From: an uncultured Gammaproteobacteria bacterium
Lineage (GTDB): Bacteria > Patescibacteriota > Microgenomatia > Levybacterales > GWA1-39-11
Direction of reading: 5' to 3'
Length of the DNA: 64,000 nucleotides
NCBI GenBank assembly: GCA_964425075.1
Contig: CAYRKM010000001.1
Span: forward strand, 106,137 to 170,136
The position numbers and the translations under genes are program-made. The notes under the pieces were generated by a model. The model made no database searches, had not been told where the DNA came from, and saw only the letters and a list, made by a program, of their open reading frames with translations. This document shows, piece by piece, positions 4,151 through 43,130 of the stretch; the stretch's first letter is position 1, and every line of letters starts with the position of its first letter.

Positions 4151-4157
4151 TCCCAAA

Positions 4158-5882: not shown

Positions 5883-6004
5883 AATTTAAGTATGAAATAA
5901 AAATTAACAGGTAGCAAGTAGTAGCGGACTTAAGGTATGGGGAATTATTAAGAGTGATTGGTGGGAGACGACGCGCGATGCGTCGCCCCCCACCGGTTGC
6001 AGAG

Positions 6005-6409
6005 CTACGAAGCAGCGAGTGCTTCCTCGACCTCGAACATGTCGCTGGATCGAAAGAAGAGGAATTTTTGTTTCCATGAGAGACGTTCCACATCAACTGC
6101 GTTGATGATTTCACGTCCCCGCTGGCTATCGTCCCGGACAATCCCTTGGATTTCCGAGAGGCTAATGGGCGCTCCTTCGATCTCGGCATCGTCAAGTTTG
6201 CCCGTGCGGGCATCCCTCAACCCTTCCGAGATGTTCTGGAGCTCTGCCATCAAGATGGCAAAAGCCCCCTCGTCGTACTCCCTGCGGGAGCAGACGACGA
6301 ACCCGAACAGTCGAACAGCCACGAAACACTTCCCTTCTCGGCATAGCCGAATTCGCTCTGCTATATGTCTTACCGAAAGTGACTTTTGAGAACGTGCAAC
6401 CGCGCTCAT
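6005..6409 (-). CDS. hypothetical protein encoded in a GC-rich island (likely horizontally acquired)
   Basis: 134-aa ORF that fills the GC-rich block ~5940-6410. Other-frame ORFs are shadows typical of GC-rich DNA. A CGACGC-GCGAT-GCGTCG hairpin lies just past its stop. Confidence 0.4.
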   Translation of the reverse strand: MSAVARSQKSLSVRHIAERIRLCREGKCFVAVRLFGFVVCSRREYDEGAFAILMAELQNISEGLRDARTGKLDDAEIEGAPISLSEIQGIVRDDSQRGREIINAVDVERLSWKQKFLFFRSSDMFEVEEALAAS

Positions 6410-6570
6410 ACATCACAAACAGTACCTACAATTTTACTCCTTTTGAACCCAAATGTCAAGCTATAGGATGTTTCTGCTACCCAGAAATAGGATAACTTTT
6501 TGAGCAATGACTAATGGTTAATAGCTAATAGTTTTTTTGTATTTCAAACTAATTTTTCTCTTTCGTCGTT

Positions 6571-6760
6571 TAGTACTGAACATATGAATAACCGAATGAA
6601 TGAGTGGCCGCGAAGCGGAAGAACTGAAAAGGCGAAGTCCGAGTTCTTAACGAATGAATGAGGTTTTGAATACGTGAAGGACTATTGACGAGAGCTTTTG
6701 CCTGCACTGAGTGAAACGAATGTGGTACTTTTCTCGGTAGAAAAGTACATGAGCTCGTTA
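6571..6760. repeat. intergenic repeat element, copy A (family shared with 43025..43130 and 61327..61510); contains a 9-bp-stem hairpin GTACTTTTC-tcggta-GAAAAGTAC
   Basis: Shared blocks with copy B: GTACYGAACATATGAA, CGAATGAG (x2), GAATACGTGARGRAC-ATTGACGAGAG-CTTTGC, then the hairpin followed by A(T/A)GAG. Confidence 0.6.
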
Positions 6761-12869: not shown

Positions 12870-15869
12870 CTATTTAACCACTATATTGAGGATTTTTCCC
12901 TCTACGTATATAACTTTTACAACATCTTGCCCTTCTAAGTACTTTGAAAGTTGCTCTCTTGCCATTTTTTCTATCTTTTCCTTATCCTTTGCCTCAAGAG
13001 ACTTAACCTCAATAATAAGCCTCTTTTTACCGTTAACCTGCACTACAATATCAGCAGTTTCACTCTGAAGCATTGCGCTATCAAAGTCTGGCCATGAGCT
13101 TATGTGAATTGAGTTAGTATTTCCTAATTTCTGCCACAGCTCCTCTGTCATGTGAGGCGCAAATGGGGCCAAAAGCTTTAAATATGTCTCTTTTTCTTCT
13201 CTCATCAACCCTTCTTGAGTAGAAAGAAAGTTATACCATTCCATTAGTGAGGCTAAAGCAGTATTGTTTGTAAACTCTTCTACCTGTTTTGTTACCTTTT
13301 GAATTGTTCTGTGCATAAATCTTTTTGCTTCAATTGAAGCTTCGTTTGTCTCAGGTTTCTCGCTTATGAGTTTCCAAACTTTCTTAAGGAATCTATTCAT
13401 TCCCTCAATTCCACTATCTCTAAAGTCTCCACCCTCAGATAAAGGTGCGATAAACATTAAATAAGAGCGCAAAGTATCAGCCCCATATTTAGAGATATAT
13501 GCATCAGGAACTACCACATTGCCCTTAGACTTTGACATTTTCGCCCCATCTTTTATCACAAGGCCATTAGCAAAAAATCTGGAAAATGGTTCTTCGAAGT
13601 TCAAATATTTCAAATCGTGAAGCGCCATCGTGATAAAACGCGCATACAAAAGATGTAGCACTGAATGTTCAGCTCCGCCAATATACATATTCACAGGAAG
13701 CCATTTTTTAGTAATTTCTGTATCAAAAGGTGCGGTTTGTATATCAATTGATGGGTATCTTAAGAAATACCATGCGCTATCAAGAAACGTATCACTAACA
13801 TCAGTCTCGCGTTTAGCTGGCTTACCACACTTAGGACAATCAACTTCAAAAAACTCAGGATGGTTATCAAGGGGAGCTTTTCCTGTGCCCATTGGTTTCC
13901 AATCTTCTACATCCGGAAGCAAAACAGGCAATTTATCATCAGAAACACAATACCATCCGGGCATGTCATTACGCTCACCCTTATTGTTTGTTGCACAATT
14001 CTCACAATAAATCATCGGAATTGGTGGTCCCCAATAACGTTGTCTAGAGATAAGCCAATCTCTAAGGTGATACTGTATCTTTCTTTTGCCAATTTTCTTT
14101 GCCTCAAGCGAGCTCAAAATTTTATCAGCGTCTTCCGGCATGTGAAAACCATTCCATTCATCAGATCCTATAATTTCTCCTTTTCCCTCAAACGCTTCAC
14201 TTAATTCTCCATTCTTAATTCTTGACTCTTTATCTTGAATTACTTGGACAATCGGTAGATCATATTTCTTAGCAAACTCGAAGTCTCTCTGGTCATGAGC
14301 TGGAACTGCCATAATTGCACCCGTCCCATAGCCTGAAAGAACATAGTCTGCTACAAAAATTCGTATTTTTTTCTGATTGAGTGGATTTATGGCAAAAAGA
14401 CCAGTATCTACTCCAGTTTTTTCTTTTCCTTCTGCAGTACGCTCAATATCCGTCTTGCTCTTCGCCATTTCTATATACTCTTTAACTTCTTGACCATTGT
14501 TATTATTTGCTACTTGCTCCGCAAGCGGGTGCTCTGGTGCAATTACCATAAAAGTTGCCCCATATAATGTATCAGGCCTAGTTGTAAAGACTTTTAGGCT
14601 ATTTAGCAAAACTTCAAGTACCTTTGGCTCAATTTCTCCACAGATGTGATCATCTTTGGACTCAAAATCTATGATTTCTCCACCAATTTGTTCCTTTATG
14701 TAGTCTGCTCTCTCTTTTGGTACAGCAGTATCATTTTTAGCTCTTAACAGTACTATATTCGCCACATTTTTCTTTATGGTTTGTGTATCAAACTGTCCGA
14801 TTTGTTCCTCAAATGACTTATCATGATCTAAAAATCCTGGCTGCATAAATCCGGCTCCTAAAACTAAATTTTTAATAGGCTTTTCCAGCTTTTCAAGAAC
14901 TTTTAAGGCAACGACTGAACCAAGGCTATGCCCTAAAATTACCGTATTTTCATCAATTTGAGCATTTTTTAAAACAAATTCAGCCTGTTCATCTATATTA
15001 GGATTATCAGTATTGGGCAGGTTTTGAGCCCAAACTTTATTGCCCCTCTTTTCTAGTTCTTTCTTAAGCCATGGAAAGAAATTAGCCTCAACTGACCCAG
15101 TATATCCATGCAAAAGAACATAATTAGACTTTTCATCTACTTCAAACTCCACTTCTGCTCCTTCGCTTTTTCCTATCCAATTTCTTTGGGCAATTTTGAC
15201 CTTTTCAGTCCAATTGAGACTCTCAATATTATTTAAAAGTCTCTCAGCGTAATTTGTAATCCTAAAAAACCACTGCTCAAGCTCTTTCTTCTCCACTTTG
15301 CTTCCACATCTCTCACACTCTCCTGCTATAACCTGCTCGTCAGATAACACTGTTTGATCCTGAGGACACCAATTTACGGTCGCCTTTTTACGGTAAGCAA
15401 GGCCATTTTTAAAGAGTTGTGTGAAAAGCCATTGTGTCCATTTATAATATTCAGGGTCATAAGTTTCAATTGTCCTATTCCAATCAAATGAATTTCCAAT
15501 ACTTTTAAGTTGGCGGTAGAAGTTAGACTCTGCTATTTCAGCCTGAACTTTTGGATGACGGCCCACTTTCATGGCATAGTTTTCACTATGGATTCCAAAT
15601 CCATCAAGCCCAATTGGCTCGAAAACATCATTTCCCTTCATTCTCTGGTAACGCCCATATACATCAGCGCCTGTAAAAGCGTACATATTACCCACGTGAA
15701 GACCCTCAGCTGAAGGGTACAGGAACATCATGAGGTTGAAAAAAGGTTTTTTTGCGTTGATTATATTTGGAGAATACAATTTATCACTCTCCCAAACTTC
15801 CTGCCATTTGGCTTCAATTTCTGAGTGGTTATACTCCTTTTTTGAACTGTTTTGTTTATCTTGTGCCAT
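12870..15869 (-). CDS. leuS: leucyl-tRNA synthetase with an inserted alpha/beta-hydrolase (RBBP9/YdeN-type serine hydrolase) domain preceding the CP1 editing domain
   Basis: HIGH-type motif LHVGNMYAFTGADVYGRY. KMSKS motif (KMSKSKGN). CP1 editing signature TTRPDTLYGATFMVIAPEHP...GTGAIMAVPAHDQRD. Anticodon-binding and C-terminal domains present. About 175 extra residues (aa ~250-426) carry GHSLG plus Asp and His. Confidence 0.9.
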   Translation of the reverse strand: MAQDKQNSSKKEYNHSEIEAKWQEVWESDKLYSPNIINAKKPFFNLMMFLYPSAEGLHVGNMYAFTGADVYGRYQRMKGNDVFEPIGLDGFGIHSENYAMKVGRHPKVQAEIAESNFYRQLKSIGNSFDWNRTIETYDPEYYKWTQWLFTQLFKNGLAYRKKATVNWCPQDQTVLSDEQVIAGECERCGSKVEKKELEQWFFRITNYAERLLNNIESLNWTEKVKIAQRNWIGKSEGAEVEFEVDEKSNYVLLHGYTGSVEANFFPWLKKELEKRGNKVWAQNLPNTDNPNIDEQAEFVLKNAQIDENTVILGHSLGSVVALKVLEKLEKPIKNLVLGAGFMQPGFLDHDKSFEEQIGQFDTQTIKKNVANIVLLRAKNDTAVPKERADYIKEQIGGEIIDFESKDDHICGEIEPKVLEVLLNSLKVFTTRPDTLYGATFMVIAPEHPLAEQVANNNNGQEVKEYIEMAKSKTDIERTAEGKEKTGVDTGLFAINPLNQKKIRIFVADYVLSGYGTGAIMAVPAHDQRDFEFAKKYDLPIVQVIQDKESRIKNGELSEAFEGKGEIIGSDEWNGFHMPEDADKILSSLEAKKIGKRKIQYHLRDWLISRQRYWGPPIPMIYCENCATNNKGERNDMPGWYCVSDDKLPVLLPDVEDWKPMGTGKAPLDNHPEFFEVDCPKCGKPAKRETDVSDTFLDSAWYFLRYPSIDIQTAPFDTEITKKWLPVNMYIGGAEHSVLHLLYARFITMALHDLKYLNFEEPFSRFFANGLVIKDGAKMSKSKGNVVVPDAYISKYGADTLRSYLMFIAPLSEGGDFRDSGIEGMNRFLKKVWKLISEKPETNEASIEAKRFMHRTIQKVTKQVEEFTNNTALASLMEWYNFLSTQEGLMREEKETYLKLLAPFAPHMTEELWQKLGNTNSIHISSWPDFDSAMLQSETADIVVQVNGKKRLIIEVKSLEAKDKEKIEKMAREQLSKYLEGQDVVKVIYVEGKILNIVVK

Positions 15870-16216
15870 GTTTTAATTGTAAATTGCCCCCCTGGCGAGC
15901 CTCGCCTTTGGCGGGAAAACTGTGAATTAGCTTCGAAATTCAATACGACTTTATAATCGTTATATCCGACATTACTTTATTATAAGGCATATTTCATTGA
16001 AAATTGAAAATTGAAAAATGAAAATTGCACTCTAGTATACCAAATGAGGCTAAAAAAACACCATGCAATTTACTCCAGGATATATAATTATGGTATAATT
16101 ACTTCCTTAGCAACCCGGTTCTGACACGCAAAAAGCTTGCGCTTATTAGGACTGTGGATGCAGTTCTTTGACAGCGTAGGTTAACACCAACGATAACTCG
16201 CTATAGGAGGTAAAAC

Positions 16217-16489
16217 ATGCCGCTCCTGATTGCTCTGTGGCTGATGTCCTGCATCGGCATTGGAGTACGAACGTACTCCAATCCGAAGGACATTAAGGGC
16301 ATCGCAATTGCGTTTGGACTTTGTGCTGTCCCACTCACGTGGGCATTCGGCAACGGTCCGGCCGCAATCATCATTGCGGTCTCTTTCCTCGTCTGTATTC
16401 TCTTTGGAGCCTGGCTTCGAAGATATTACGGCGAGGAGATCAACCAGTTCTTGTGCAGGCTCGAGGAGAAATTCTACGAGCTGAAATAA
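16217..16489 (+). CDS. small membrane protein in a GC-rich island (hypothetical)
   Basis: Strong SD (TAGGAGGTAAAACATG). Two to three TM helices. GC-rich relative to flanks. Confidence 0.5.
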   Translation: MPLLIALWLMSCIGIGVRTYSNPKDIKGIAIAFGLCAVPLTWAFGNGPAAIIIAVSFLVCILFGAWLRRYYGEEINQFLCRLEEKFYELK

Positions 16490-16544
16490 TGCAGACTAGA
16501 AAACCCAGCGACCAATACCCAACCTGAAAGGAAGGGATGAACAG

Positions 16545-17084
16545 ATGCGACCAGGAAAAGAAACCGTCAAGAACGCAGGCTTTGTTACTATCGTGGCAAC
16601 GTTTACGATCATGATTGGGGTACTCTTTGTGGCTTCTGGAGAGAAACCAGAACCTGCAACGAGCTCCAGGGCCAAAGTTGACCTCCAGTTGTTGGCCTCG
16701 CCAACAACTGTACCAACACTGCTTCCTGCAGCTTCTCGCTGTTCTGAAGCAATATACATATACCCTCAAGGCGTAATTCTATTCCACAACTTGGATCCAT
16801 ATCCTGTCGATGGATTCGATTTCCAAGTCTGCACAACAGACAGGATGACGCCGATAACAGCTGCTGATATGATGGTCGCAGCTAACGAGGGGCAACTCGC
16901 AATGGAGGAAAGTCTCCTCTGGGATCCAGACCTTCTAATGAGAGTATTCTTAGAAGCGGCTGTCCCAAGGATATCGCAACTCCATCCCGAGCTAAGAGGG
17001 CTGCTTCTGGAGACATACTTCCAGTTCATACCTAAAGGAGGAGTCATCCCCACAGCGACAGCAACATCAAGACCCTCTACATAG
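16545..17084 (+). CDS. hypothetical N-terminally TM-anchored protein in a GC-rich island
   Basis: N-terminal TM (FVTIVATFTIMIGVLFVASG). Same GC-rich block as 16217..16489. Overlapping ORFs in other frames are treated as GC shadows. Confidence 0.45.
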   Translation: MRPGKETVKNAGFVTIVATFTIMIGVLFVASGEKPEPATSSRAKVDLQLLASPTTVPTLLPAASRCSEAIYIYPQGVILFHNLDPYPVDGFDFQVCTTDRMTPITAADMMVAANEGQLAMEESLLWDPDLLMRVFLEAAVPRISQLHPELRGLLLETYFQFIPKGGVIPTATATSRPST

Positions 17085-17124
17085 GGGCGGCACATCGATT
17101 GGCTAAGAAACCTACGCGACTAGA

Positions 17125-17165
17125 CTCCCGCTTTGCCCTAACCGGCTGAGCGGGAGAAACCCTTT
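17125..17165 (+). terminator. stem-loop (CTCCCGCT ... AGCGGGAG, 8-bp stem) followed by a short T-run; terminator-like, closes the GC-rich island
   Basis: Perfect 8-bp inverted repeat 17125-17132/17149-17156, then AAACCCTTTT. Confidence 0.35.
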
Positions 17166-17213
17166 TAAAGCCCCAAACTTGAACTTTCTATATAAATCCA
17201 CTACGATTAAATT

Positions 17214-17822
17214 ATGCCGCTACTCTTTCAATCAATATCAATTCTCTCATCCATATTCTTTGTTTATTTAGTACAAAACTCTGTATTTAGCAGTTATTCT
17301 TCGTATCTGCTAGCCCTCCTAATTATCTTTTCAATTATCTATACTACGCTCAAAAAACGCTCAAAATCAGCTAATACTCTTTTTTCTGGCACTCCTATGG
17401 AGTTGTTTGCTAGTAGCAGCATAATTCTTTTGATAATTAGCCTTACAGGCAATATTTCCTCCCCTCTCTTCTTCTTTCTATACTTTTTATTAATAATGCT
17501 TGTTTTTCTTTCAGGCCCAATTAGCACTCTCATATTTGCTTTGGGATTAACTCTATACTTTTTACCTGAAACCTTAAATAATCCTGTCCCTGAAAACATT
17601 GTAAAACTAGCTTCATTTATTCTTTTAGCTCCAATCGGATACTTTATAGGGCGGGAATTTGAAAACAGAAAGGTGCTTGATGAAAAAATTGAAGCTAAAA
17701 CTGAGGAAATTATACAAGAAGCTCAAAATCTTAAAGAAGCGTCAAAGCAGCCTGATGAAGAAGAAGCTTTGGACGAAATTATCGAAGAGGCAGAAAGTTT
17801 GAGGCAAGACAGTGAAAAATGA
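17214..17822 (+). CDS. polytopic membrane protein with acidic coiled-coil C-terminal tail, hypothetical; ATGA-overlaps the next gene
   Basis: Four to five hydrophobic helices. C-terminus EEEALDEIIEEAESLRQDSEK. Stop overlaps the start of 17819..18595. Confidence 0.5.
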   Translation: MPLLFQSISILSSIFFVYLVQNSVFSSYSSYLLALLIIFSIIYTTLKKRSKSANTLFSGTPMELFASSSIILLIISLTGNISSPLFFFLYFLLIMLVFLSGPISTLIFALGLTLYFLPETLNNPVPENIVKLASFILLAPIGYFIGREFENRKVLDEKIEAKTEEIIQEAQNLKEASKQPDEEEALDEIIEEAESLRQDSEK

Positions 17823-18595
17823 ATATGAAAACTGCTATTAAACACCTCTATTCTCCCATGGGCACAATTGCTTTCTTAAGCATAAACTTTGCCCTTTTTG
17901 CTCTATTTTATGCTCAGACTATTGATGCTCAAAGTCGAATGTCAAACGATAGGTTCATTATTAGGTTCGGAAATCTTAACACCGCAGCTGGAAATTCTTC
18001 CAATTCACAATATGGCTTGGGACAAACTGTTGGACAAATAGCCCCAGGCCTTTATAGTGGCACAAATTACAAGGTTCGCGCGGGTTTCCAGTACATACAT
18101 AGCATCATACCCTTTGCCTTCTCTATTTCGTCACAATTTGTTGATTTTGGGCCAATTACACCAGGCGCTGCAATTACCCGTACAAATGTACTTACAATTT
18201 CAAATGGCTCAGCTTATGGATACTCAGTTCTTGCTTCAGAAAACCATCCTTTGAGGGTAAATCCGATAGGCGTAGATATTCCCGACACAACGTGTGACTC
18301 TGGAACTTGTAACGAACAAACAGCCTCAGCCTGGACAAGTGTACTCACTTATGGCTTTGGCTACCGCTGCGATAACTTAGTCGGGGCTGACTGCCAATCT
18401 GGATTTTCATCAAGTGATAATTATCGTCAGTTTGCCTCAAGTAGTTCTGGAGAATTAGCATTTCCTGTAATGCGTGGTGTAAATGTAGGCAGAAACATCC
18501 AGTCACAGATTACATATAAGGTAAATATTTCCTCAACTCAGCCTGCGGGATTATATGAAAATGTCATTACATACGTAGCTACTCCCTCTATCTAA
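17819..18595 (+). CDS. secreted surface protein, paralog of 811..2334 (C-terminus ...ITYVATPSI); possibly a divergent WxL-like domain
   Basis: Signal peptide (IAFLSINFALFALFYAQTIDAQS). C-terminal half aligns with 811..2334, see above. Confidence 0.6.
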   Translation: MNMKTAIKHLYSPMGTIAFLSINFALFALFYAQTIDAQSRMSNDRFIIRFGNLNTAAGNSSNSQYGLGQTVGQIAPGLYSGTNYKVRAGFQYIHSIIPFAFSISSQFVDFGPITPGAAITRTNVLTISNGSAYGYSVLASENHPLRVNPIGVDIPDTTCDSGTCNEQTASAWTSVLTYGFGYRCDNLVGADCQSGFSSSDNYRQFASSSSGELAFPVMRGVNVGRNIQSQITYKVNISSTQPAGLYENVITYVATPSI

Positions 18596-18995
18596 ATTTA
18601 TAAGTGAAAAGTTGCATCTTCGGAGTTAAAAGTCGCAATTTGAGCTTGGATTTGTATAATTGTAGTATATTTTGTGCGTAGTAAAGGCTAGGAATTTAAA
18701 AAACGTTGATATATCAATCCAAAGTCTATACTCTACTTGTTATCACTTTGACCATCTTTTTGCCATTTGCAATTTTGAAAACCAAGCAAACTAAATGATA
18801 TACTTTGATATATATATTTTCACAGAGTGCTTTTCACACTTAATCTCGGAAGTAAAATAAATCTATTACCGCATAACTCGAAAAATAATACAAACTTGGG
18901 CTTATATATAACTCCGCTAGAATACTACTTCTGTGAAACATAAACCCGGGAACATAAAACTTTAACTTTTAGATTATTTACAGTAGTATGAATAT

Positions 18996-19958
18996 ATGAA
19001 GCGGTTGTTTTTTATTCTTTCTTTAAGCTTATTCTTTTGCATCATTTCTTCGCAAAATGTTAGCGCCCAAGCTCTTTCTGTTAGTGTTTATCCACCCATT
19101 CTTGAAGTTCAAACTACACCTCCATCCTCACCAACGGCTCCAATTACAATTCAAAACCTAGGGGAAACAGATATTGCACTTTCAATTCAACTAATTCCCC
19201 TCAAAATGAACCCAAACGGAACAGGGGACGTTTTATTTTTCCCCGATGCACTAAATCAAGGCTTTTATGGCTACTACAAGGGTAGGATTCAATTCTTAGT
19301 TGATGACGTAAAAACTGAAAAAGTAACACTTCAAGCTCAAGAATCTAAGCAAGTAACCCTTAACATTAATCTTAAAAAGGGAGATCCTCCAGGAGACTAT
19401 TACTATGGAATTGTTTTCCTTAGCGAAGGAAAAACACTTGAGGACACATCTTTAACCTCACTTCCTGCAGGGATTTCTACCAATCTTCTACTCTCAGTTG
19501 GACCCAAAAAACCGTCGGTTGGAGGCATAACTGAATTCAGTACTTCAGCTTTTAAGAACAATGGACCGGTTGAATTTACTCTAAAGCTTCATAACGGCAG
19601 CGAGCACCTTATCAGTCCAACTGGAAAAGTATCAATAAATAATATGCTTGGTAAAAAGGTTGCCTCAATTGACATTCTACCCCAATATATTCTTGCTCAA
19701 AGCGATCGTTACTTAATAAATCAATCTTCATCAACCTCTGCTACTTTAAGCACAAATGAGACTCCAAAGGTTATTTGGAATGAAAAATTTCTTTTAGGAT
19801 TTTATACTGCAACAGCCAATATAAGGCTTGAAGAAAATGGAAATATCTTAACAGAAAAAACCTACTTCTTTGCTTTTCCTATTTATCTCTTCTTTGGTGT
19901 CGCAATTGTATTCTTTGTTCTTGCTGGAATTTATCTTAGAGTGAAGAAAAAGATGTAA
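18996..19958 (+). CDS. cell-surface protein with signal peptide and C-terminal TM anchor (CscA/DUF916-like architecture); paralog of 2430..3404
   Basis: Signal LFFILSLSLFFCIISSQNVSAQA. C-terminal FAFPIYLFFGVAIVFFVLAGIYL followed by RVKKKM. Confidence 0.6.
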   Translation: MKRLFFILSLSLFFCIISSQNVSAQALSVSVYPPILEVQTTPPSSPTAPITIQNLGETDIALSIQLIPLKMNPNGTGDVLFFPDALNQGFYGYYKGRIQFLVDDVKTEKVTLQAQESKQVTLNINLKKGDPPGDYYYGIVFLSEGKTLEDTSLTSLPAGISTNLLLSVGPKKPSVGGITEFSTSAFKNNGPVEFTLKLHNGSEHLISPTGKVSINNMLGKKVASIDILPQYILAQSDRYLINQSSSTSATLSTNETPKVIWNEKFLLGFYTATANIRLEENGNILTEKTYFFAFPIYLFFGVAIVFFVLAGIYLRVKKKM

Positions 19959-20613: not shown

Positions 20614-23600
20614 ATGGAATTCCTTGAACTATTCAAAAGACAACTTACACAAACTTCAAATGGTATTTCAAAAATAAGCCTGAAGAACTATCTTTCTGAT
20701 ATTCGTCACTTTATTAACTGGTTTGAGTACACCACAGGGAACACTTTTTCACCAAAAAATATTACCGCAGAGGTAATTGAGCTATATATTGCATCCCAGG
20801 GAGCAGTAATTTCAGACGGAAACCTTTCAACCCAAGACAAACTTTCGCCAAGCTCTATGAAAAGACATCTTTCCTCGCTTCGAAAGTTTGTCTCGGTGCT
20901 CAAAAAAGAAAACCTACTTGAAGAAAATCCGTTTGAGGAAATTAACCAGACAAATGAAGAACAGAATTACGATTATTGGCACTTTGATTCATTTAAAGAT
21001 TATTTGCTCCAAAATAATGCCTCAAAATTAACCGTAAAAAATTATCTTTCTGATATAAAAGGTTTTGCAAGTTGGTACGAACAGGCAATATTACCTACGC
21101 TTATTTCCCCTCTCACCTCAACTAATGGTGCTTATCGGATCTCTCAAGAAATAGTTCAGGAATATAAAGACAGATTGTTTAATATACAATCATCAGCTCC
21201 ACGCACAATTAACCGCAAACTGTCTTCACTCCGCCGATATTTGGAGTTTGGAACGAATAAGGGCTTTATTAATCCTGGAGAAATAGTTCTACCTTCTATC
21301 CAAATAGGGAAAGAGGAGGCAGAACCTGTAAAGATTCAGCTAAAAGATCTTAATCAAACTCAAACTTTAGAAACAAAAAGCTATTCTTCCTTTCCTCCAG
21401 CAAGACTTCTTCAAAAGCTAGTTATTTTCCCTTATTTACTTCTTGAAGATGCCGTTGCCTCAAAAGTCGCAACAATTATGACTGGAAAAGAAATGATTGC
21501 AGGAATTGCACTTTCTCAATTAGATAAAGTGAAAATGAGCACTCGCGCTATAGTCAATGCTCAAAATCAATCAATTGACGCGATTTTGGGCGTAAGAAAT
21601 GTAAAAAAGGAATTCTATGCTCCTCACCAAGTACAATTATCTGGACTCCCTTTCCACAAAAAATTACTTTATCATGCACGATATACTAGACCAAAATGGT
21701 ATAAAACATATCATAGTTATCCATTTGTACATTATGCCCATTTTGCACTCCTTATAATCTTTGCAGTTGGAGTTGGGGTTGCAGCTTATCAGAATTTGGT
21801 AGGAAAAAATCAAAGACCAACCTTTGCCGCCCCCACGGCTCCACCGAGAATACTTTCATTTCAGGGAAGACTAACTGACGCAAGTGATAACCCAATTACA
21901 AGTGCAACGGATATCCGGTTTGCAATTTATAATGATCTTTCAGCATCAGGCGCTGCTCTTTTGTGGCAAGAAGTTCACTACGTTGTAACCCCTGACCAAG
22001 ATGGAATATTCTCCGTACTTTTGGGAACAAATGATGCAATACCTTCAACTGTATTTTCAGATAATGCAGGAACTTATCTTGGTGTTACAATCAACCAAAC
22101 ATCAGAACTTACGCCACGTCAAAGAATTGCCGCAGTTGCATACGCTACTAATTCTGAACAGCTTCAAGGAATGCCTCCTATTACCGCAGGTGGGGCTGGA
22201 ACCTCAAATGTTGTACTAGCACTTGATTCATCAGGTAATCTAACCATTGGTGGAAGCGCAGCTCCAACCTTTACAGCCTCGGGGGGTCAATTCAGACTAT
22301 CGGGTCAGCCTCTTGTTCTAAATACAAATTCAAGTTCAAATGGAAATATCGTTCTTGCTCCTGATGGACTTGGAAGGATAGATCTTCAAAAACCACTAGT
22401 AAATAGTGGAACTTCAGGGAACATTACTCCAGGGGGAGTTGAGGTAAATGATAAATTTGGAGTTCTTGCAACAGAATCGGGAGTCGCATCATTTGTTATC
22501 AACAACAATGGTTCAAGCGACATTTTTACAGCCTCATCATCGGGATCTCCTCGCTTTACTATCTCAACAACAGGCGCTCTTACTATTCCAACATATAACA
22601 CAAATGGTGGAATCTTCTATGCAAATGGTTCGGGAGTTGTTGCACAGACAACTGCAGGAAGCTCGGGGGAATGTTTGCAGTCAATTGGAGGAGGAACACC
22701 AACTTGGGGATCTTGCGGAAGCGGCAGCGGAAGTCTTTGGAGATTATCAAGTGGCGCTTTATCTCCCATAAATGATACTGCGGATGTATTGATTGGAAGT
22801 AATGCTACAGCAAGCGCGAAATTCGCATTCATAAATGTTGCTGGGGGAACACCAACAGCTTCAATCTCTGCAAGTAGCGGAAACAATTGGACAACATTAA
22901 GCGGAGATGGAATTTTGGGAACAACAAACAAACAAACACTTTCTATAGGAAACAGCTCGACAGGAATTATTGCAATTAATTCTCCCGAGAACAGTAAAAC
23001 CTCAATTGGAACAGGCTCAACACTTGGAACACTTAAGATTTCAGGTCAGTCTCCGGGAAAAGCTTTAGTAAACCTCCAATATCTAGGGTCTGGTCAAAAT
23101 ATTTTGGTTGCATCAAATTCCGCCGGAACCAATGTCTTTACTATCGAGGAGGACGGAGACATTATTGTGGGAAATGCGGGTGCAGGCAAATTGACAGCTG
23201 CAATAATTGACCCTTATCTAATCCAAAATCAATACACGTCAGTTACTCCCGAACTTATTTTCCAAACAATGGCAGCTACAAGTGGAGACTTTATATATAA
23301 AAACCAATCAACCGAGCTTGCACGCCTTGCCCAAGCCGGACAATTTCAACTTCCAATAACAGGCTCTTCAGGAGGACTTGTAATTGGAGCTGACACACAG
23401 CTTTTTAGAGGCTCTGCCGATAGGCTTGATTTAGCATCAGGCGACTCATTTAATCTTGTTTCGGGTAGCATTCAAATTGGCGGAACTACGGTTATTGACT
23501 CCTCACAAAATGCAACATTCAGCAGCCTAACTGTTACTGGTGGATGTACGGGTTGTGTAAGCGCATCAGATTCACCTTTTAAGGTATTAAGTGGTGCAAT

Positions 23601-26600
23601 TGTACCACTCAACTCAACGCTTGACTTCACTCTTGGTGGTCAATCAAGCGCATCAGCAAAATTTGCAGTACTTAATATCGGCACAGGAACACCCACAGCT
23701 TCAATCTCTGCAAATTCTGGAGATAATGCTCTATATATAACAGGAGACGGTTCTCTTGCAACAACCAATAGACAAAGCCTAACAATTGGAAATTCATCAA
23801 CATATAACACAACGGGAAATGTGCTGATAAATTCTAATGCAACCGGCAATGTTGGGTTAAGAACCGCAACGCCTACAAGTTTCAACGTAGAATTTGCGGG
23901 AAGCCTTGGACCAGCAGTAGATAATTCCTCTGTTCTTGGATCTGCATCAAGGAGATTAAATTCTATATATTTAGGTGACGGTGGTCTCCAAGCTGTAGGC
24001 AATGCCGGAACTTCCGGATCTGTAAATATCAATACAGCTGCAAGTGCTGTTACGGTCACTAGATACGGACAAAGGATATTGAATAATACGTTAAATACTA
24101 CAACAGACGGAATTGATAAATATGGACTTTATATCAACAACACAGGTTCTTTTACAGGACTGACAGGAACTTCTACCAATAACTACTCTTTATACATCTC
24201 TACACCTTCAGGTGCTGATAACAATTATTCTATATATTCAGCGGGTGGAACAAATTACCTTGCAGGAAATACAGGACTTGGTACAACAACACCGACAGCT
24301 CTTCTTGATGTAGCAGGTACTGCTTCTGTTTCAGGGGCTTTGAAGCTATATGGAACTCCTACCATCCAATCTACTGCAAATCAAACATTGACACTAGGTG
24401 GAGATACAACTGGAAGTATTGTGCTTTCACCTCTCAATGGTTCGGGGACAATTCAACTTACAAATTTTACTACAAACGGTGGCTTAATATATACTAATGG
24501 ATCAGGTGTACTGGCTCAAACCGGTGCAGGAAGCGCTACTCAATGTTTGCTTGGAGGCACTACTCCTACTTATGGCAGTTGTGCAACTGGAACAACCGTA
24601 ACACCTTTCCAAGAATTAACTGGTGCAATAGTACCAAATAATTCAACTCTGGACTTCCTAATTGGAGGGCAAGCAACAGCAAGTGCTAAATTTGGAATAT
24701 TAAATATAGCCGGAGGAACACCAACCGCCTCAATTAGTGCAAATAATGGGAATATAGCAACTTACCTTGCCGGTGACGGGACTCTTGCAACTACAAATAG
24801 GCAAACTTTAACTATTGGTAATTCCTCTACATACAACACAACGGGAGAAGTACTAATAAATCCTAATGGAACTGGAAATGTAGGCGTCGGGACAACAAGC
24901 GCAAGGTCAAAATTCCATGTTGCCAATGCTTACTCAGGCCAAGCAACACCTAATGCCTCTTCTATCTTAACAATTGAAAACAATGCTAATGCATATTTAA
25001 GTTTTCTTACACCGGCCAATGTTCAGAGCGGTATCCTTTTTGGAAGTCCTACAAATTCAGCTCAAGGACAAATTACCTACAATCATTCTTCAAATTATTT
25101 AAATTTTTATACAGGAGGAGCTGATAGGGCTAGAATTACAAGCACGGGTTTTGGAATCGGCATGACTTCACCAATATCTCAACTTCATGTTTCAAGAAGT
25201 GCAGCGGCTACGGGCAAAGCATTGGCTGTTTTTGATCAAACGGAAAGTCAAGATATAATAACAGCTTCTGCTTCTGGTATTACAAAGTTTGCAATTACAA
25301 ACAGTGGGGTTTTGCAACTTGTTGGTGGACAAACTTCAGATATTGATACTTTAACAAATGCTACTCTAAATATTGGGGCGACAAATGCCACCACTATTTC
25401 TATTGGTCGATCAAGCCAAGGTATTACACTTCCTGGATTTACTGGTCAAAATGGAATACTTTATGGAACTTCAGGAACTGGAGTATTAGCTCAAGCGACT
25501 ACTGCCTCTACTGGTCTTTGTCTACTCTCAGGAGCCGCAAATCCAGCTTGGGGAACTTGTCCAACAACAGGAAATTCAAGCTCAAACTGGACACTGAACT
25601 CAACAGATGGAACTCTTTATCCAATAAATAGTACTCTTGATGTATTAATAGGTAATACTGCATCAACTTCTGCCAAATTTGCATTCTTAAATGTTGCTGG
25701 AGGAGTACCCACAGCTTCAATTTCTGCAAATACAGCTGATAACAATACTTTCTTAACAGGAGCTGGTAACCTTGCAACAACCAACAAACAAACCCTAACA
25801 CTTGGGGGCAGCACAACAGGAGGAATAGTTATTGATTCAGGAAGCTCCTCAATAAATCTTGCGGATGATACCTCTATAACAGGTAATATTACTGGCTCAG
25901 GTACAACTGGACTTACTCTCACGGGTGCTGGAGCTGGAATTACCTTCTCAGGAAGTGGACTTCATGAAATAGGTGCCTCATCAGGAACTCTTCGAATTGG
26001 AACACACACACTAACCGGCGCAATAACCGGAGGAAATCAAAATATCAGCTCAATTGGTAACATCTCAGCGAATTCTTCCTCAAATACATTAACTGGTTTT
26101 GGAACAATTGGAACTTCTGGAACTACTGCTTTCGTTGGCACCAACCTAACCCTAGCAGGTGCTGCAACTGATATAACTTCAGGTGCCAATCAAGACTTGG
26201 CAATAACTGCAAATGGTACAGGAAACCTAATACTTACCACAGATTTTGATACTAGCGTAAAAGTTGGTACATCAAATAATATCATGGCACCTCTTTCGGT
26301 ATCTGGAGGTATCGGATCTAATGCTGGATTTATCCTAGATCAACTTAATGATGGGGACTTATTCACTGCCTCTGCTGCTGGGGTTACTAAATTTACTTTC
26401 ACAAACGGCGGGTCGCTTAACCTTACAGGTGGTCAAACAATAGATACTTTAGCTTCCGGAACTCTAGGAATTGGCACTACAACAGCTACTACTCTTACGT
26501 TGGGCAGAAGTGGACAAGGGATTACACTTCCAGGCTTTACGGGTCAAAATGGAATACTTTATGGAACTTCAGGAACTGGAGTACTTGCACAGGCCACGAC

Positions 26601-29577
26601 TGGCACTCCTAGTCTTTGTCTTCTCTCAGGAGCCTCAAATCCAACCTGGAGCACTTGCCCAACCTCAGGAAGTTCTAATTGGACTCTTGATACAGCTGCT
26701 GGTGTGATACGTCCAAACAACAATACAGTTGATTTTCTATTAGGTGGAACAGCAACTGCAAGCGCTAAATTTGCAGTTCTAGGGATTAATGGAGCTACAG
26801 TTCCAACTGCATCACTTTCTGCAACAACCGCTTCCGGCGGCGATGGAAATGGTATTACTCTAAGTGGAGATGGATCAATACAAAGCTTGAGAAATAATAC
26901 ATTAACGCTAGGAGGAGCCACAACTGGAAGTATCCAATTCAAACCAGGCAATATTTCAACTCCTTCACTCTACCTTGCAACCGGCGGAAATGTGGGAATT
27001 GGAATAGCAGCTCCAACAGAACTTCTTCATTTGTATAAAACAACTGGTAATTATGCAACATTACGGTTTGATTCAGGAACTACCCAAGGATATGCCTTCT
27101 CATATGACGGAGATAATAGTGTAAATATAGGAGCAAATAGTAGCAGTCTATTGCACTTAAGAACGAGTAATGCAGCAAGAGCAACAATCCTTGCAAGCGG
27201 AGAATTCGGTATTGGTACTACGACCCCTGTCTCTCAATTACATGTAACAAGGGCGCTCTCCCTTGGAGCAACTGGAAAAGCCTTGGGGATATTTGACCAG
27301 ATAGAGAACCAGGACATCTTTACGGCCTCCTCTGCAGGTATCACGAAGTTTGTTATGGGAAATGATGGAAGAATTGGCATAAATACTGCTGCCTCACCTA
27401 CAGGAGTTAACCCACTTGCAATGCTTCAGGTTTACTCAAGTCTTGGCACTACTCCAGCAGCTTCAATTTCAGCTACAACTGCTAACGCTGTCCTTAGAGT
27501 AGACCAGAATGGAGTTGGGGATTTCATAGTTGCTTCAAAAGCTGGTCAAACATATTTCAAGATAACTGCAAGTGGAGATGCAGAAATTGGAGTTAATGCG
27601 GGTGGAAAACTTAATGCAGGAACCGTTGACCCTCCTTATACTATTGATGGAGAAGGATATGCTACTTATATGCCTTCAATGATAGGTGTAAAGGAAGAAT
27701 ATGCAGGAAAAGCCGTCCTTTCTTATGATTCTCGTGCAGGTGCTTACGTATATAAATTAGACTTCAATAACTTTGAGAGACAATCTGACCAGTGGGTTTA
27801 TAACCGCATTATCGATCCTGATATTTCCAATGTTTCGGTTTTGATGACTCCAAATTCAGCAGCGCGCACATGGTACAAAAAAGATGGTACAAATCGCACC
27901 ATAACTCTATATGCAGATAGACCTGTTGAAATTTCTTATAGATTAACTGCTCCAAGATTTGATCATGATAAATGGAAAACTTATACAGGTATTCCAAAGG
28001 GACATATTGCTCCACCGCCAACAATTAACGGTAGTTCAGAAAACGACAACAACATGGAGGTTGATCCTTACTTTGCAACTCTTTCTATAAATGAAGAAAA
28101 CGGACAATATGTTCTAAAAGATTCATACAATAACAAAGTGAATCATATTGATGCATTCTCAAAAACAATTTCTGCCAAGATTGAGGCGGGATGGGTACAA
28201 GCCAAAAAGATAACTTCTGACACAATTTCTGCAGGAAGTGCTAATTTCAACAACCTTACAGCCTCAACTCTTGCGCTAACGAGTGACTCAATAACAATTA
28301 GTGGCCAAAATCTTCGCGACTTTATAGTTGCGACAGTTCAAAATGCAGGCTTAACTCAAAATGGCAATGAAATTATCTCCCCTCTTGCATCAATTGACAT
28401 GATAAAAACAAATGTAATTTCACCACTTGCTGAAGAAGGTTCAGTTGCTCTTCACATAAATCCAAACGACCTTACTCTTAAAAATACGCAGACAGGTGAA
28501 ACGGTTGCAAAGATTGATAATCAGGGTAATTTAAATGCCCGAAGCGCGAGCTTCTCAGGAACACTTGAATCAGAAGTTGCCTTATTTGACAGTGCAAGCG
28601 TATCAGGCAATTTAGCAACCAACACTCTTCAAGCCAATAATGCTTCAGTTGCTGGAACTTTGAGGGCTGACAAGATTATCGCAAATGATATTGAAGGCAT
28701 TGATAACCGCATCTCATCAATTGCAAACAACCTCATCAATACAGCCTCAGGCTCAGGCAGCTTTACAGATGGAGGCAATTTGGCAGTTGGTTCTCTTAAT
28801 GCCCAATTTGGATTATTTGAGCAAGGAATAGTATCTCTTGGTTCAGGAACATTTACTCAACTTACTGCAATGGACTCTATCTCTATTGGTCAAGGATTTA
28901 TTTTAGGCAATAATTCAATTAATACATTGGGTGCAGATCTAGAAATCCAACCGCTTCGCCAGGGAAATATTTCATTCATGGCGGGACGAGTCACGATTGA
29001 CACCGATGGAAATATGGCGGTAGACGGAAATATTAGCATACAGGGTAATTTGGCTGCCGCACGCGGAATATTTAGCGACACTATAGAATCCCGTGCATTA
29101 GTTACTAACATAATCTCACCACTTGCTGATAAAGATTTGGTGTTCAAGCTTAATGGTGAAAGTTTTGCCTCAAATTCAGGTAAACTTCAAATTCAAAATA
29201 CCCAAGGAAACCAGGTATTGGCAATTAATAACAAGGGAGATATTATCTCTTCCGGATCTGCAAGGTTTGGCAAGCTTAACCTTTCCCTAGTGGGTAAGGC
29301 TGAGGCTATAAATGAAAACGAAGCAGTTGCAACAGGAAGCGCAGGATTTGCAACCCTAAAGAGAGGAAGAACTGAGCTTACTATCATTAATCCAAATGTT
29401 ACTAAGGACTCACTTATTTACGTTACTCCATTTGGGGACACAAGCAACAAGGTCATATATTTATTGCGCCAAACTCCAAATGAACCTGAGAATGGTATAC
29501 AAGGATCATTTACGGTCGGGGTTTCGGGAACTACTACGACACAGGACTTACAATTTAACTGGCTTGTTGTGAATTAA
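20614..29577 (+). CDS. giant (2987 aa) single-pass membrane protein: cytoplasmic N-terminus with two tandem tyrosine-recombinase N-terminal SAM-like (core-binding) domains, one TM helix (~aa 374-396), huge extracellular region with >=5 tandem ~130-aa Cys-pair repeat modules and a C-terminal Gly/Asn/Ser-rich fibre-like region
   Basis: aa ~15-110 and ~135-225 each match the integrase SAM-like/core-binding pattern (LKNYLSDIRHFINWFE..ITAEVIELYIA..MKRHLSSLRKFVSVLKKENLLEENPFEEI; and LTVKNYLSDIKGFASWYE..ISQEIVQEYKDRL..RKLSSLRRYLEFGTNKGFINPGEI). TM is YAHFALLIIFAVGVGVAAYQNLV, preceded by the basic stretch HARYTRPKWYKTYH. Repeat consensus ..NG(I/L)(L/F)YxxGSGVLAQ(A/T)T(A/T)GSxxxCLLSG..NP.WG.CP...(N)WTL....G.(I/L).P.N.T.D.L(I/L)GG.A(T/S)ASAKFA.LN(V/I)AGGTPTASISAN.(G/A)(D/N)N....(L/T)G.G.LATTN(K/R)Q(T/S)LT(I/L)G.S(T/S)T. 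Confidence 0.8.
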   Translation: MEFLELFKRQLTQTSNGISKISLKNYLSDIRHFINWFEYTTGNTFSPKNITAEVIELYIASQGAVISDGNLSTQDKLSPSSMKRHLSSLRKFVSVLKKENLLEENPFEEINQTNEEQNYDYWHFDSFKDYLLQNNASKLTVKNYLSDIKGFASWYEQAILPTLISPLTSTNGAYRISQEIVQEYKDRLFNIQSSAPRTINRKLSSLRRYLEFGTNKGFINPGEIVLPSIQIGKEEAEPVKIQLKDLNQTQTLETKSYSSFPPARLLQKLVIFPYLLLEDAVASKVATIMTGKEMIAGIALSQLDKVKMSTRAIVNAQNQSIDAILGVRNVKKEFYAPHQVQLSGLPFHKKLLYHARYTRPKWYKTYHSYPFVHYAHFALLIIFAVGVGVAAYQNLVGKNQRPTFAAPTAPPRILSFQGRLTDASDNPITSATDIRFAIYNDLSASGAALLWQEVHYVVTPDQDGIFSVLLGTNDAIPSTVFSDNAGTYLGVTINQTSELTPRQRIAAVAYATNSEQLQGMPPITAGGAGTSNVVLALDSSGNLTIGGSAAPTFTASGGQFRLSGQPLVLNTNSSSNGNIVLAPDGLGRIDLQKPLVNSGTSGNITPGGVEVNDKFGVLATESGVASFVINNNGSSDIFTASSSGSPRFTISTTGALTIPTYNTNGGIFYANGSGVVAQTTAGSSGECLQSIGGGTPTWGSCGSGSGSLWRLSSGALSPINDTADVLIGSNATASAKFAFINVAGGTPTASISASSGNNWTTLSGDGILGTTNKQTLSIGNSSTGIIAINSPENSKTSIGTGSTLGTLKISGQSPGKALVNLQYLGSGQNILVASNSAGTNVFTIEEDGDIIVGNAGAGKLTAAIIDPYLIQNQYTSVTPELIFQTMAATSGDFIYKNQSTELARLAQAGQFQLPITGSSGGLVIGADTQLFRGSADRLDLASGDSFNLVSGSIQIGGTTVIDSSQNATFSSLTVTGGCTGCVSASDSPFKVLSGAIVPLNSTLDFTLGGQSSASAKFAVLNIGTGTPTASISANSGDNALYITGDGSLATTNRQSLTIGNSSTYNTTGNVLINSNATGNVGLRTATPTSFNVEFAGSLGPAVDNSSVLGSASRRLNSIYLGDGGLQAVGNAGTSGSVNINTAASAVTVTRYGQRILNNTLNTTTDGIDKYGLYINNTGSFTGLTGTSTNNYSLYISTPSGADNNYSIYSAGGTNYLAGNTGLGTTTPTALLDVAGTASVSGALKLYGTPTIQSTANQTLTLGGDTTGSIVLSPLNGSGTIQLTNFTTNGGLIYTNGSGVLAQTGAGSATQCLLGGTTPTYGSCATGTTVTPFQELTGAIVPNNSTLDFLIGGQATASAKFGILNIAGGTPTASISANNGNIATYLAGDGTLATTNRQTLTIGNSSTYNTTGEVLINPNGTGNVGVGTTSARSKFHVANAYSGQATPNASSILTIENNANAYLSFLTPANVQSGILFGSPTNSAQGQITYNHSSNYLNFYTGGADRARITSTGFGIGMTSPISQLHVSRSAAATGKALAVFDQTESQDIITASASGITKFAITNSGVLQLVGGQTSDIDTLTNATLNIGATNATTISIGRSSQGITLPGFTGQNGILYGTSGTGVLAQATTASTGLCLLSGAANPAWGTCPTTGNSSSNWTLNSTDGTLYPINSTLDVLIGNTASTSAKFAFLNVAGGVPTASISANTADNNTFLTGAGNLATTNKQTLTLGGSTTGGIVIDSGSSSINLADDTSITGNITGSGTTGLTLTGAGAGITFSGSGLHEIGASSGTLRIGTHTLTGAITGGNQNISSIGNISANSSSNTLTGFGTIGTSGTTAFVGTNLTLAGAATDITSGANQDLAITANGTGNLILTTDFDTSVKVGTSNNIMAPLSVSGGIGSNAGFILDQLNDGDLFTASAAGVTKFTFTNGGSLNLTGGQTIDTLASGTLGIGTTTATTLTLGRSGQGITLPGFTGQNGILYGTSGTGVLAQATTGTPSLCLLSGASNPTWSTCPTSGSSNWTLDTAAGVIRPNNNTVDFLLGGTATASAKFAVLGINGATVPTASLSATTASGGDGNGITLSGDGSIQSLRNNTLTLGGATTGSIQFKPGNISTPSLYLATGGNVGIGIAAPTELLHLYKTTGNYATLRFDSGTTQGYAFSYDGDNSVNIGANSSSLLHLRTSNAARATILASGEFGIGTTTPVSQLHVTRALSLGATGKALGIFDQIENQDIFTASSAGITKFVMGNDGRIGINTAASPTGVNPLAMLQVYSSLGTTPAASISATTANAVLRVDQNGVGDFIVASKAGQTYFKITASGDAEIGVNAGGKLNAGTVDPPYTIDGEGYATYMPSMIGVKEEYAGKAVLSYDSRAGAYVYKLDFNNFERQSDQWVYNRIIDPDISNVSVLMTPNSAARTWYKKDGTNRTITLYADRPVEISYRLTAPRFDHDKWKTYTGIPKGHIAPPPTINGSSENDNNMEVDPYFATLSINEENGQYVLKDSYNNKVNHIDAFSKTISAKIEAGWVQAKKITSDTISAGSANFNNLTASTLALTSDSITISGQNLRDFIVATVQNAGLTQNGNEIISPLASIDMIKTNVISPLAEEGSVALHINPNDLTLKNTQTGETVAKIDNQGNLNARSASFSGTLESEVALFDSASVSGNLATNTLQANNASVAGTLRADKIIANDIEGIDNRISSIANNLINTASGSGSFTDGGNLAVGSLNAQFGLFEQGIVSLGSGTFTQLTAMDSISIGQGFILGNNSINTLGADLEIQPLRQGNISFMAGRVTIDTDGNMAVDGNISIQGNLAAARGIFSDTIESRALVTNIISPLADKDLVFKLNGESFASNSGKLQIQNTQGNQVLAINNKGDIISSGSARFGKLNLSLVGKAEAINENEAVATGSAGFATLKRGRTELTIINPNVTKDSLIYVTPFGDTSNKVIYLLRQTPNEPENGIQGSFTVGVSGTTTTQDLQFNWLVVN

Positions 29578-42934: not shown

Positions 42935-43130
42935 TCCTCGTCCCGATGCATATCGGGATCGAGGAGGGGGTGATATCCCACACTGTGCGAGGGAACAAAA
43001 TTAGCTCGACTTTCATTGCAAATTCTTTTTGGTACTTTTGTTAAGACAAAAGTACAAGAGTAAACATTGACCAGAGCTTTTGGTACTTTTGGCGGTTCAA
43101 AAGTACAAGAGAAAACAGCGACAAAAAAAC
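42935..43130. repeat. intergenic structured repeats: perfect palindrome CCTCGTCCCGAT-gcat-ATCGGGATCGAGG plus two tandem copies of the family hairpin (GTACTTTTG-n6-CAAAAGTAC-AAGAG)
   Basis: 43025-43063 and 43073-43112 each hold a 9-bp stem/6-nt loop hairpin. The second is preceded by ATTGACCAGAGCTTTTGG and followed by AAGAGAAAAC, as in copy B at 61468. Confidence 0.55.

Follow-up and report, generated by a model that had tools for sequence, protein, structure and literature searches.

A small GC-rich island beside a surface-protein gene cluster in an uncultured bacterium: a candidate accessory operon with conserved, complementary ends at a site of gene turnover

What is a GC-rich island of about 1.07 kb, with two genes of its own, doing between leuS and a cluster of surface-protein genes? 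The question is raised by a stretch of 64,000 nucleotides (nt) of an uncultured bacterium (contig CAYRKM010000001.1, positions 106,137 to 170,136 of the forward strand), which we call the window. The host is a small-genome bacterium, probably one of the Patescibacteria or a similar member of the candidate phyla radiation (CPR), whose own genes mostly lack a Shine–Dalgarno (SD) sequence. The island spans positions 16100-17174 at ~50% GC, against a mean of 38.4% (0.384) for the window, and an initial annotation had described it as a recently acquired foreign module of two genes with a strong SD and a terminator of its own. We favor, at a probability of roughly 0.55, a different account, in which the island is an accessory operon for envelope proteins at a hot spot of gene turnover. 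By this account it is read from the host's own promoter, a conserved clamp between its 5′ and 3′ untranslated regions (UTRs) encloses it, and its GC-richer, SD-using cargo is exchanged by recombination.

The sharp shift in composition on which the initial annotation drew is borne out. In sliding windows of 400 nt, GC is 0.48-0.50 within the island and 0.33-0.39 in its flanks, and the 4-mer profile is an outlier with a robust z of 3.6, second in the window to an island at 46.8-48.1 kb. GC at third codon positions (GC3) is 0.65 in the first open reading frame (ORF1) and 0.46 in the second (ORF2), against 0.284 ± 0.032 (maximum 0.37) in 41 native ORFs. Four intergenic stretches reach at least 0.46 GC in 200-nt sliding windows, namely 3501-4200, 5901-6450, 16101-17200 and 46801-48100, and the third of these, our island, is unbroken at that level and peaks at 0.54. 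No sequence similarity was found among the four, which are therefore not copies of one element. The island is also no assembly chimera, as four contigs, each from a different sample and made by two assemblers in all, together reproduce its two junctions. Logan contig L001 (run SRR14271365) is identical base for base to window 16275-18701, and breaks at its start because that start falls in a perfect 11-bp palindrome (16259-16282); contig L002, from a second run (SRR14271372), crosses the right junction; and two ENA MEGAHIT contigs, the strain variants L003 and L004, both cross the left one.

Comparison of the same site in relatives shows that the island is accessory, since the cargo there differs or is absent (Table 1). 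The island adjoins leuS on its left and, on its right, the gene of a 202-amino-acid (aa) membrane protein (17214-17822) with 49 relatives at 46-85% identity; this gene opens a conserved surface-protein cluster, so that the position upstream of a surface cassette given in the initial annotation is correct. In the relatives, comEC, comEA and leuS share one strand, the opposite strand carries the 202-aa gene followed by the ~256-aa, ~320-aa and giant genes, and comEC and comEA lie 3-6 kb to the left of the site. A metagenome scan with the 202-aa neighbor protein contributed two loci, while a scan of GTDB species genomes with LeuRS returned only relatives at ≤53% identity, of no use for synteny. 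The relatives L091, which is empty, and L092, which is not, share an identical 206-aa neighbor, a right flank at 100% and a left flank at 89% identity, and hold 143 and 876 bp at the site, respectively, which makes the pair a recombination mosaic. Between the cargo of the window and that of the relatives no similarity was detectable, and blastp gave no cross-matches; ORF1 and the membrane protein of L099 yielded a weak match (E 0.06), and a resemblance of ORF2 to the lipoprotein of L099 and L088, suggested by eye, was not supported (hhalign probability 0.2%).

The frame around this changing cargo is conserved. In the divergent promoter block upstream, TAGTATACCAAATGAGGC holds the −10 element of the leuS side (minus strand) and an extended −10, TGgTATAAT, faces rightwards at 16091-16099; the block is 100% identical in strain variant L003 and is native to the host site, because it also stands in the empty site of L086. 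The left border lies immediately 3′ of this −10 box (16094-16099). We take the island operon to be transcribed rightwards from the native promoter and not from one imported with the cargo. The 186 nt upstream of ORF1 differ from L003 at a single position, against a synonymous divergence (dS) of 0.16-0.21 in the ORFs. Within the leader, a 65-nt core is homologous in L099, L092 and L093-L095 despite the different downstream genes. Its model, R1, has a variable hairpin between two strands, a at 16134-16143 (AGCTTGCGCT) and b at 16173-16182 (AGCGTAGGTT). The R1 covariance model scores 57-82 bits in the window, L003, L004, L099, L092, L093, L094 and L095, the only matches outside the training set being L004, L094 and L095, each a close relative of a training sequence, and in the window and 26 related loci its matches are confined to this locus. 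In the R1 helix 93.7% of cells are paired, compared with 31-45% when the partners are slid, with few independent changes. A helix between an anti-SD and the SD, seen in a leader-only fold, was dropped because it is not conserved in L099 or L093.

At the other end of the operon, between the ORF2 stop codon and the terminal hairpin, motif c (AACCTACGC) matches the reverse complement of leader motif b exactly, and homologous motifs directly follow the last stop codon in L088, L099, L100, L093 and L092. The duplex of b and c reads GCGTAGGTT/AACCTACGC in the window and L099, CGCAGGTT/AACCTGCG in L093 and L095, and AAACGCAGGAAA/TTTCCTGCGTTT in L092, a perfect core of 9-12 bp with compensatory changes across the three sequence states. 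In the window the complementarity reaches 22 bp, in blocks of 9, 8 and 5 bp (16174-16203 with 17086-17117). Two of these pairs are U-G wobbles, as suits a helix in the sense RNA rather than a repeat that a protein binds in the DNA. Folding of the transcript 16105-17160 gives this long-range helix pair probabilities of 0.80-1.0 and predicts three domains, namely a 5′ hairpin domain (16110-16161), a closed one (16165-17124) that contains both ORFs and the SD, and the terminal hairpin. L099, L093 and L095 are predicted to close in this way too, which brings the pair probability to ~1 in four of five lineages. The duplex between the 5′ and 3′ flanks is computed at −48.8 kcal/mol; native genes reach only −20.8 ± 5.6, and the other GC-rich islands fall between −31 and −34. 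Comparison of the sequences thus establishes conserved ends, their complementarity and the covariation of b and c.

These observations bear on the plainest of the alternatives, a foreign two-gene fragment with its own ribosome-binding site (RBS) and terminator that landed once, long ago or recently, and whose conserved ends reflect shared ancestry and drift. Such an insert would account for the contrast in composition and SD use, for the absence of the island from L086 and L091, and for the ORFan status of its genes, which is typical of island genes. We nevertheless consider it unlikely, as the leader and 3′ end are common to islands without detectable cargo similarity, b and c change together where independent drift would be expected, and the promoter is native. 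The recency asserted in the initial annotation is not sustained either: presence and absence are polymorphic, but the dS to L003 speaks against a recent arrival, and the island ends have homologues around unrelated cargo in relatives that show only 55-70% identity in the neighboring protein. Homologous ends around unrelated cargo in diverged relatives therefore make the locus an old platform with cargo turnover.

The same inverted repeats could also work in DNA, b and c being the recombination sites of an invertible or exchangeable cassette (an inverton, recombinase-mediated cassette exchange, an integron-like or a miniature inverted-repeat transposable element (MITE)-like unit) with its recombinase elsewhere. 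Perfect inverted repeats of 9-12 bp around lineage-variable cargo, in a fixed position behind a promoter, are what such an element would present, as are conserved 5′ and 3′ ends with variable content. We find this quite improbable, however. Sites recognized by a protein should be conserved, yet b and c co-vary; the U-G wobbles become C-A mismatches on the opposite strand; the cargo has one orientation in all nine island-bearing contigs; no integrase or transposase adjoins any island, and neither of these nor any other recombinase was found beside the four GC-rich islands of the window; the ends have no second copy in the 64 kb or in the related loci searched; and no attC-type R″/R′ cores and no target-site duplication were seen on reading the sequence. 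The island does resemble integron cassettes in that an outside promoter drives promoterless, exchangeable small ORFs, inverted repeats bound the cargo, and the 3′ end is rich in hairpins. Unlike them, it is confined to a single locus and has no integrase, attI, array or attC architecture (R″-L″...L′-R′ within ~60-140 nt): no attC cores (RYYYAAC ... GTTRRRY) were seen when 17085-17175 was read directly, the hairpin there measures 32 nt, and the inverted repeats lie ~930 nt apart. In place of intI and a cassette array there are leuS as left neighbor and a single module, with no similar ends elsewhere in the 64 kb. Insertion sequences (ISs) and MITEs fit no better, given that the inverted repeat sits inside the conserved ends and not at their extremities, the borders carry no direct repeat, and there is one copy.

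As for the cargo itself, the initial annotation was right to see a two-gene module of a small membrane protein and an anchored one. ORF2 has a single N-terminal hydrophobic segment (residues 8-34) and two conserved cysteines, and its product is probably extracytoplasmic. Against L003, ORF1 shows 9 synonymous and 4 non-synonymous codon changes, with 10 of its 14 substitutions at third codon positions; the ratio of non-synonymous to synonymous divergence (dN/dS) for ORF2 in Table 1 refers to the first 110 codons. Both are lineage-restricted ORFans evolving under purifying selection. The strong SD is equally real: within the RBS sequence TAGGAGGTAAAACATG (16204-16219) the SD of ORF1 pairs strongly with the anti-SD (Table 1), that of ORF2 pairs at −8.3 kcal/mol, and native genes have a median of +0.2, about 10% of them reaching −6 or lower. 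The native genes of the window are nearly all without an SD, and in many a TATAAT-like box precedes the start codon by 6-10 nt, a placement that suggests leaderless mRNAs are widespread; the 202-aa gene, with a −35-like TTGAAC and the −10-like CTACGATTAA in the sequence just ahead of it (17175-17213), also looks leaderless.

Searches for relatives of the two proteins returned little. Pfam, PHROGs, PADLOC and NCBIfam profiles gave only sub-threshold chance matches to ORF1, ORF2 and the cargo proteins of the relatives. A word-indexed search of 5.8 billion clustered proteins found a 96% variant as the sole relative of ORF1 and, for ORF2, a match to itself, and an exhaustive HMMER search over 1.84 billion representative proteins added one match for ORF2 (P0052, E 4e-15). 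This is a 1765-aa eukaryotic Ig-repeat protein in which a 20-aa motif, NLDPYPVEG, is repeated nine times, and we regard the match as spurious. Neither blastn against phage and plasmid collections nor pattern and protein scans of viral contigs matched the island. A single-sequence AlphaFold2 model of ORF2, at a predicted local distance difference test (pLDDT) score of 39, was unusable. The foreign origin put forward in the initial annotation hence keeps the support of composition, GC3 and the SD contrast and lacks a donor, as the database searches of both proteins gave none.

The RNA of the island is unusually folded, with z-scores against shuffled sequences of −7.15 for ORF1 and −4.3 for ORF2, and sliding-window values of −2.4 to −6.3 in the island and ~0 in the native flanks; relatives' islands at the site range from −0.1 to −3.7. 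A conserved RNA structure inside the ORFs is not supported, as substitutions between the window and L003 disrupt predicted pairs no less often than chance would, and the foldedness looks like general hairpin-richness rather than one conserved fold. That the whole is a structured non-coding RNA with chance ORFs, or else an assembly artefact, is scarcely credible to us. Fold z-scores of −4 to −7 do lie within the range of structured RNAs, and the proteins have no homologues; set against this are the codon-position bias, a dN/dS below 1, an SD-ATG geometry suited to translation, the unconserved pairs within the ORFs and the lack of an Rfam match, and a 179-codon ORF would arise by chance at 50% GC with a probability that we estimate at ~2e-4 per start. 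An artefact is contradicted by the reproduced junctions. Rfam 15 gave no match at the gathering score in the window and none at E ≤ 5 in 15850-17300, where neither that search nor reading by eye found a hammerhead or other ribozyme at the island border, and a tRNA search found none in the window.

A small hydrophobic protein with a charged tail, translated from an exceptionally folded RNA whose ends are predicted to pair, also recalls a toxin locus. In hok mRNA the two ends fold back on each other through the fbi-tac pairing, and a locus of the hok/sok type would here consist of a membrane-damaging ORF1 product encoded by a stable, folded mRNA kept inactive by the 5′-3′ fold-back. The likeness extends to the highly structured mRNA, the predicted pairing of its ends and the first product being a small membrane protein, but we hold this to be very improbable. 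At 90 aa and three hydrophobic segments, ORF1 is larger than the type I toxins (below ~60 aa, with one transmembrane helix) and more complex; there is a second gene; no antisense promoter stands out, and no antisense RNA or small RNA (sRNA) was identified from the sequence; PADLOC and Pfam gave no match; and in relatives the same frame holds cargo of a housekeeping type, ndk and acpP in L093, or a lipoprotein in L099. The island qualifies neither as an integron cassette, an IS or a MITE nor as a type I toxin locus, and it belongs to no family in Rfam.

Where the initial annotation had placed the module's own terminator, the evidence is divided. The closing stem-loop is stable (Table 1), but it lacks a T-run or U-tract, its tail reading AAACCCUUUUAAAG, and a consensus terminator scan makes no call there; the label of terminator is not supported as given. 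A Rho gene is encoded in the window at 44396-45616. Save for one base, this terminal hairpin is shared with the L085 island, although the cargo there is unrelated; other relatives have different GC-rich hairpins in its place.

Table 1. Features of the island and its borders in the window, and what stands at the same site in relatives.
Feature	Position or length	Strand	GC	Content, basis or remark
Native divergent promoter block	16031..16099	.		Conserved in window, L003, L099 and empty site L086
GC-rich 5′ leader of island operon	16100..16216	+		Absent from empty sites L086 and L091
Conserved leader RNA motif, model R1	16124..16188	+		RNAalifold consensus, covariance model
Predicted long-range helix, 5′ strand (GCGUAGGUU ... 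CCAACGAU)	16174..16194	+		Full-transcript fold, covariation with 3′ motif
Shine–Dalgarno AGGAGG of ORF1	16205..16210	+		Anti-SD pairing −11.5 kcal/mol
ORF1, 90-aa small membrane protein, three hydrophobic segments, charged C-terminal tail	16217..16489	+		Hydropathy; dN/dS 0.16
Perfect 11-bp hairpin within ORF1	16259..16282	+		One of the two longest perfect hairpins in 64 kb
ORF2, 179-aa protein, N-terminal membrane anchor or signal peptide	16545..17084	+		Hydropathy; dN/dS 0.46
Perfect 11-bp hairpin within ORF2	16686..16710	+		The other longest perfect hairpin in 64 kb; identical in L003
Predicted long-range helix, 3′ strand, with motif c AACCTACGC at 17109-17117	17094..17117	+		Folding, covariation
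Terminal GC-rich stem-loop, terminator-like, no U-tract	17125..17156	+		z −3.1, 0/200 shuffles as stable
Right border, return of native sequence (AAACTTGAACTTT)	17175..17213	+		Island ends ~17174; common to empty site L086 and all relatives
L086 spacer between leuS and 202-aa gene	351 bp		0.26-0.37	Empty
L091 spacer	212 bp		0.325	Empty
L092 spacer	945 bp		0.53	Degraded Clp_N-like ORF and acyl carrier protein (acpP)
L093/L095 island	~1.7 kb		0.55	Two unknowns, nucleoside-diphosphate kinase (ndk), acyl carrier protein (acpP)
L099 island	~1.5 kb		up to 0.62	Membrane protein, lipoprotein, small helical protein
L088, L085, L100 islands	partial		GC-rich	L088 and L085 cargo related to L099 island; L100 cargo unrelated

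Several points count against the account that we favor. The clamp between the UTRs is a computational prediction, comparative and thermodynamic, and the b/c inverted repeat could equally act at the level of DNA. The b/c pair is sampled in three independent sequence states and no more; folding does not predict the long-range helix for L092 (p 0.01), even with 12 nt of complementarity; and the local helix of a and b in R1 is not the thermodynamic choice in the fold of the window. The foldedness of the two ORFs is not explained by conserved structure, because of the pairs broken at the chance rate, and the GC-richness that persists across diverged lineages is left without explanation. With no donor and no homologue of ORF1 or ORF2 found, composition is what points to a foreign origin, and hydropathy and neighborhood are what suggest the function of the proteins, the AlphaFold model being unusable.

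If the accessory-operon account is correct, motifs b and c would pair in the RNA and close the SD and both ORFs into a domain of ~950 nt, flanked by the 5′ hairpin domain and by the terminal hairpin, and this clamp may set the stability, processing or translation of the mRNA, by analogy with icaR or hbs. The cargo would derive from GC-richer, SD-using organisms and be swapped between strains through DNA uptake followed by homologous recombination, for which the conserved frame and the flanking core genes could serve as anchors. As neighbors of the surface cluster, ORF1 and ORF2 would then encode variable factors that act at the cell envelope, on the surface or in interactions. A bolder variant, which we regard as improbable, sees the host promoter, the conserved leader and the co-varying 3′ motif as a fixed socket into which unrelated GC-rich genes are repeatedly swapped, with pairing in RNA, or in the single-stranded DNA of competence, perhaps helping to define or exchange the cargo; if true, ultra-small bacteria would have a cassette system that lacks an integrase.

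How does such a locus compare with systems that are already described? In the processing stalks and intervening sequences of ribosomal RNA, the flanks pair into a helix around a long RNA segment, which RNase III excises. The flanks of the island are likewise predicted to pair and enclose a long RNA segment; unlike the stalks, what they enclose is an mRNA, and the helix is short, interrupted (9 + 8 + 5 bp) and known here from prediction.

Closer parallels are found among bacterial mRNAs controlled by pairing between their 5′ and 3′ UTRs, such as icaR of Staphylococcus aureus (PMC3868564) and hbs of Bacillus subtilis (PMC5737220). Complementarity of the two UTRs with covariation, the mark of the icaR-like class, is found in the island, whose 3′ UTR motif is complementary to the 5′ UTR of its own mRNA near the RBS, and effects on translation and on access by RNase would be expected by this likeness. 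In the icaR-like class the pairing also masks the SD and gives rise to a site for RNase III. The island differs in that the predicted duplex lies 10-20 nt upstream of the SD and not on it: the helix stops at 16194 (16203 with its extension), short of the SD at 16205-16210, so that the SD is left uncovered and is not masked by the pairing. It differs further in enclosing a two-gene operon, in being conserved while the enclosed genes are swapped, and in being known here by computation.

Genomic islands and competence are common in Patescibacteria (PMC12455944), and the locus shares with flexible genomic islets a fixed core-gene site, polymorphism of presence and content, atypical GC and codons, ORFan cargo, the lack of a mobility gene, and competence machinery in the genome. 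By the usual marks of such islets, the composition deviates and presence or absence is syntenic; neither a donor nor a mobility gene, tRNA or attachment (att) site was found. Unlike flexible islets, the island is very small (~1 kb), has a locus-specific frame of leader and 3′ motif, uses a native promoter, and is GC-rich across diverged lineages.

A few observations concern the surroundings of the site. In the empty site of L086, at 540-585 and just 3′ of the native promoter, a c-like motif (CCCCTACGT) is followed by a weak AT-rich hairpin (TATTCC-TGCT-GGAATA); it may be a decayed 3′ end, and if so the L086 lineage would have lost an island rather than never gained one. L085, the closest relative (neighbor 85% identical), carries at 1343-1717 a 124-aa gene similar to 23S_rRNA_IVP or bAvd, between the 207-aa and 264-aa genes of its surface cluster, where the corresponding genes of the window overlap; this marks a second small insertion point in the cluster. 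LeuRS itself (window 12870-15869, minus strand, 999 aa) contains an inserted domain of ~150-190 aa that varies among relatives: Ser_hydrolase- or abhydrolase-like in L093-L095 and probably also in the window, with a weak NUDIX match in L092 (1014 aa), and absent from L091 (852 aa). The surface cluster (17819-19958 and 20614-29577), syntenic in every relative examined, resembles the WxL-type surface loci of Gram-positive bacteria; its 320-aa protein has weak WxLIP_PGBD and Fn3-like matches and a C-terminal anchor, and a giant protein of 2987 aa comes next.

Other structured elements were seen elsewhere in the window. The 5′ part of the fourth island (46790-47180, plus strand) has a multi-branched fold with z −8.87, reaching −11.5 in sliding windows, and no Rfam match; upstream of a 243-aa lipoprotein-like ORF (47182-47913), it is a strong candidate for a structured RNA or leader not described before. 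At the right edge of the same island, before a native glycosyltransferase gene, 47999-48047 (plus strand) can form a hammerhead-like three-way junction of stem I (GCCCGAU/AUCGGGC), the core CUGAUGA, stem II (GUCC/GGAC), GAAA and stem III (CCUUU/AAAGG), with a fold z of −4.0; Rfam Hammerhead_3 gives it only 18.8 bits, against a gathering score of 48.5. The islands at 3501-4200 (maximum GC 0.61) and 5901-6450 (maximum 0.585) each have one small ORFan ORF (3755-4039, plus strand, and 6005-6409, minus strand, respectively) and a GC-rich hairpin of their own, with fold z-scores of −2 to −4.8; they have no sequence in common with the island studied here, and the R1 leader is absent from them. A hairpin motif, GTACTTTT-loop-AAAAGTAC, occurs three times in intergenic sequence (6725-6748, 43032-43055 and 43083-43106) and could serve as a native terminator or as a regulatory repeat.

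Ultra-small, host-dependent bacteria have few routes to innovate, and their variable surface and membrane genes are likely points of contact with hosts and phages. The locus offers a concrete route of this kind, one intergenic slot beside a surface cluster in which SD-bearing, GC-rich genes are gained, lost and replaced. Should the clamp work as predicted, it would be a reusable regulatory frame that renders foreign genes expressible, and a clear, testable addition to the very few 5′-3′ UTR interactions known in bacteria.

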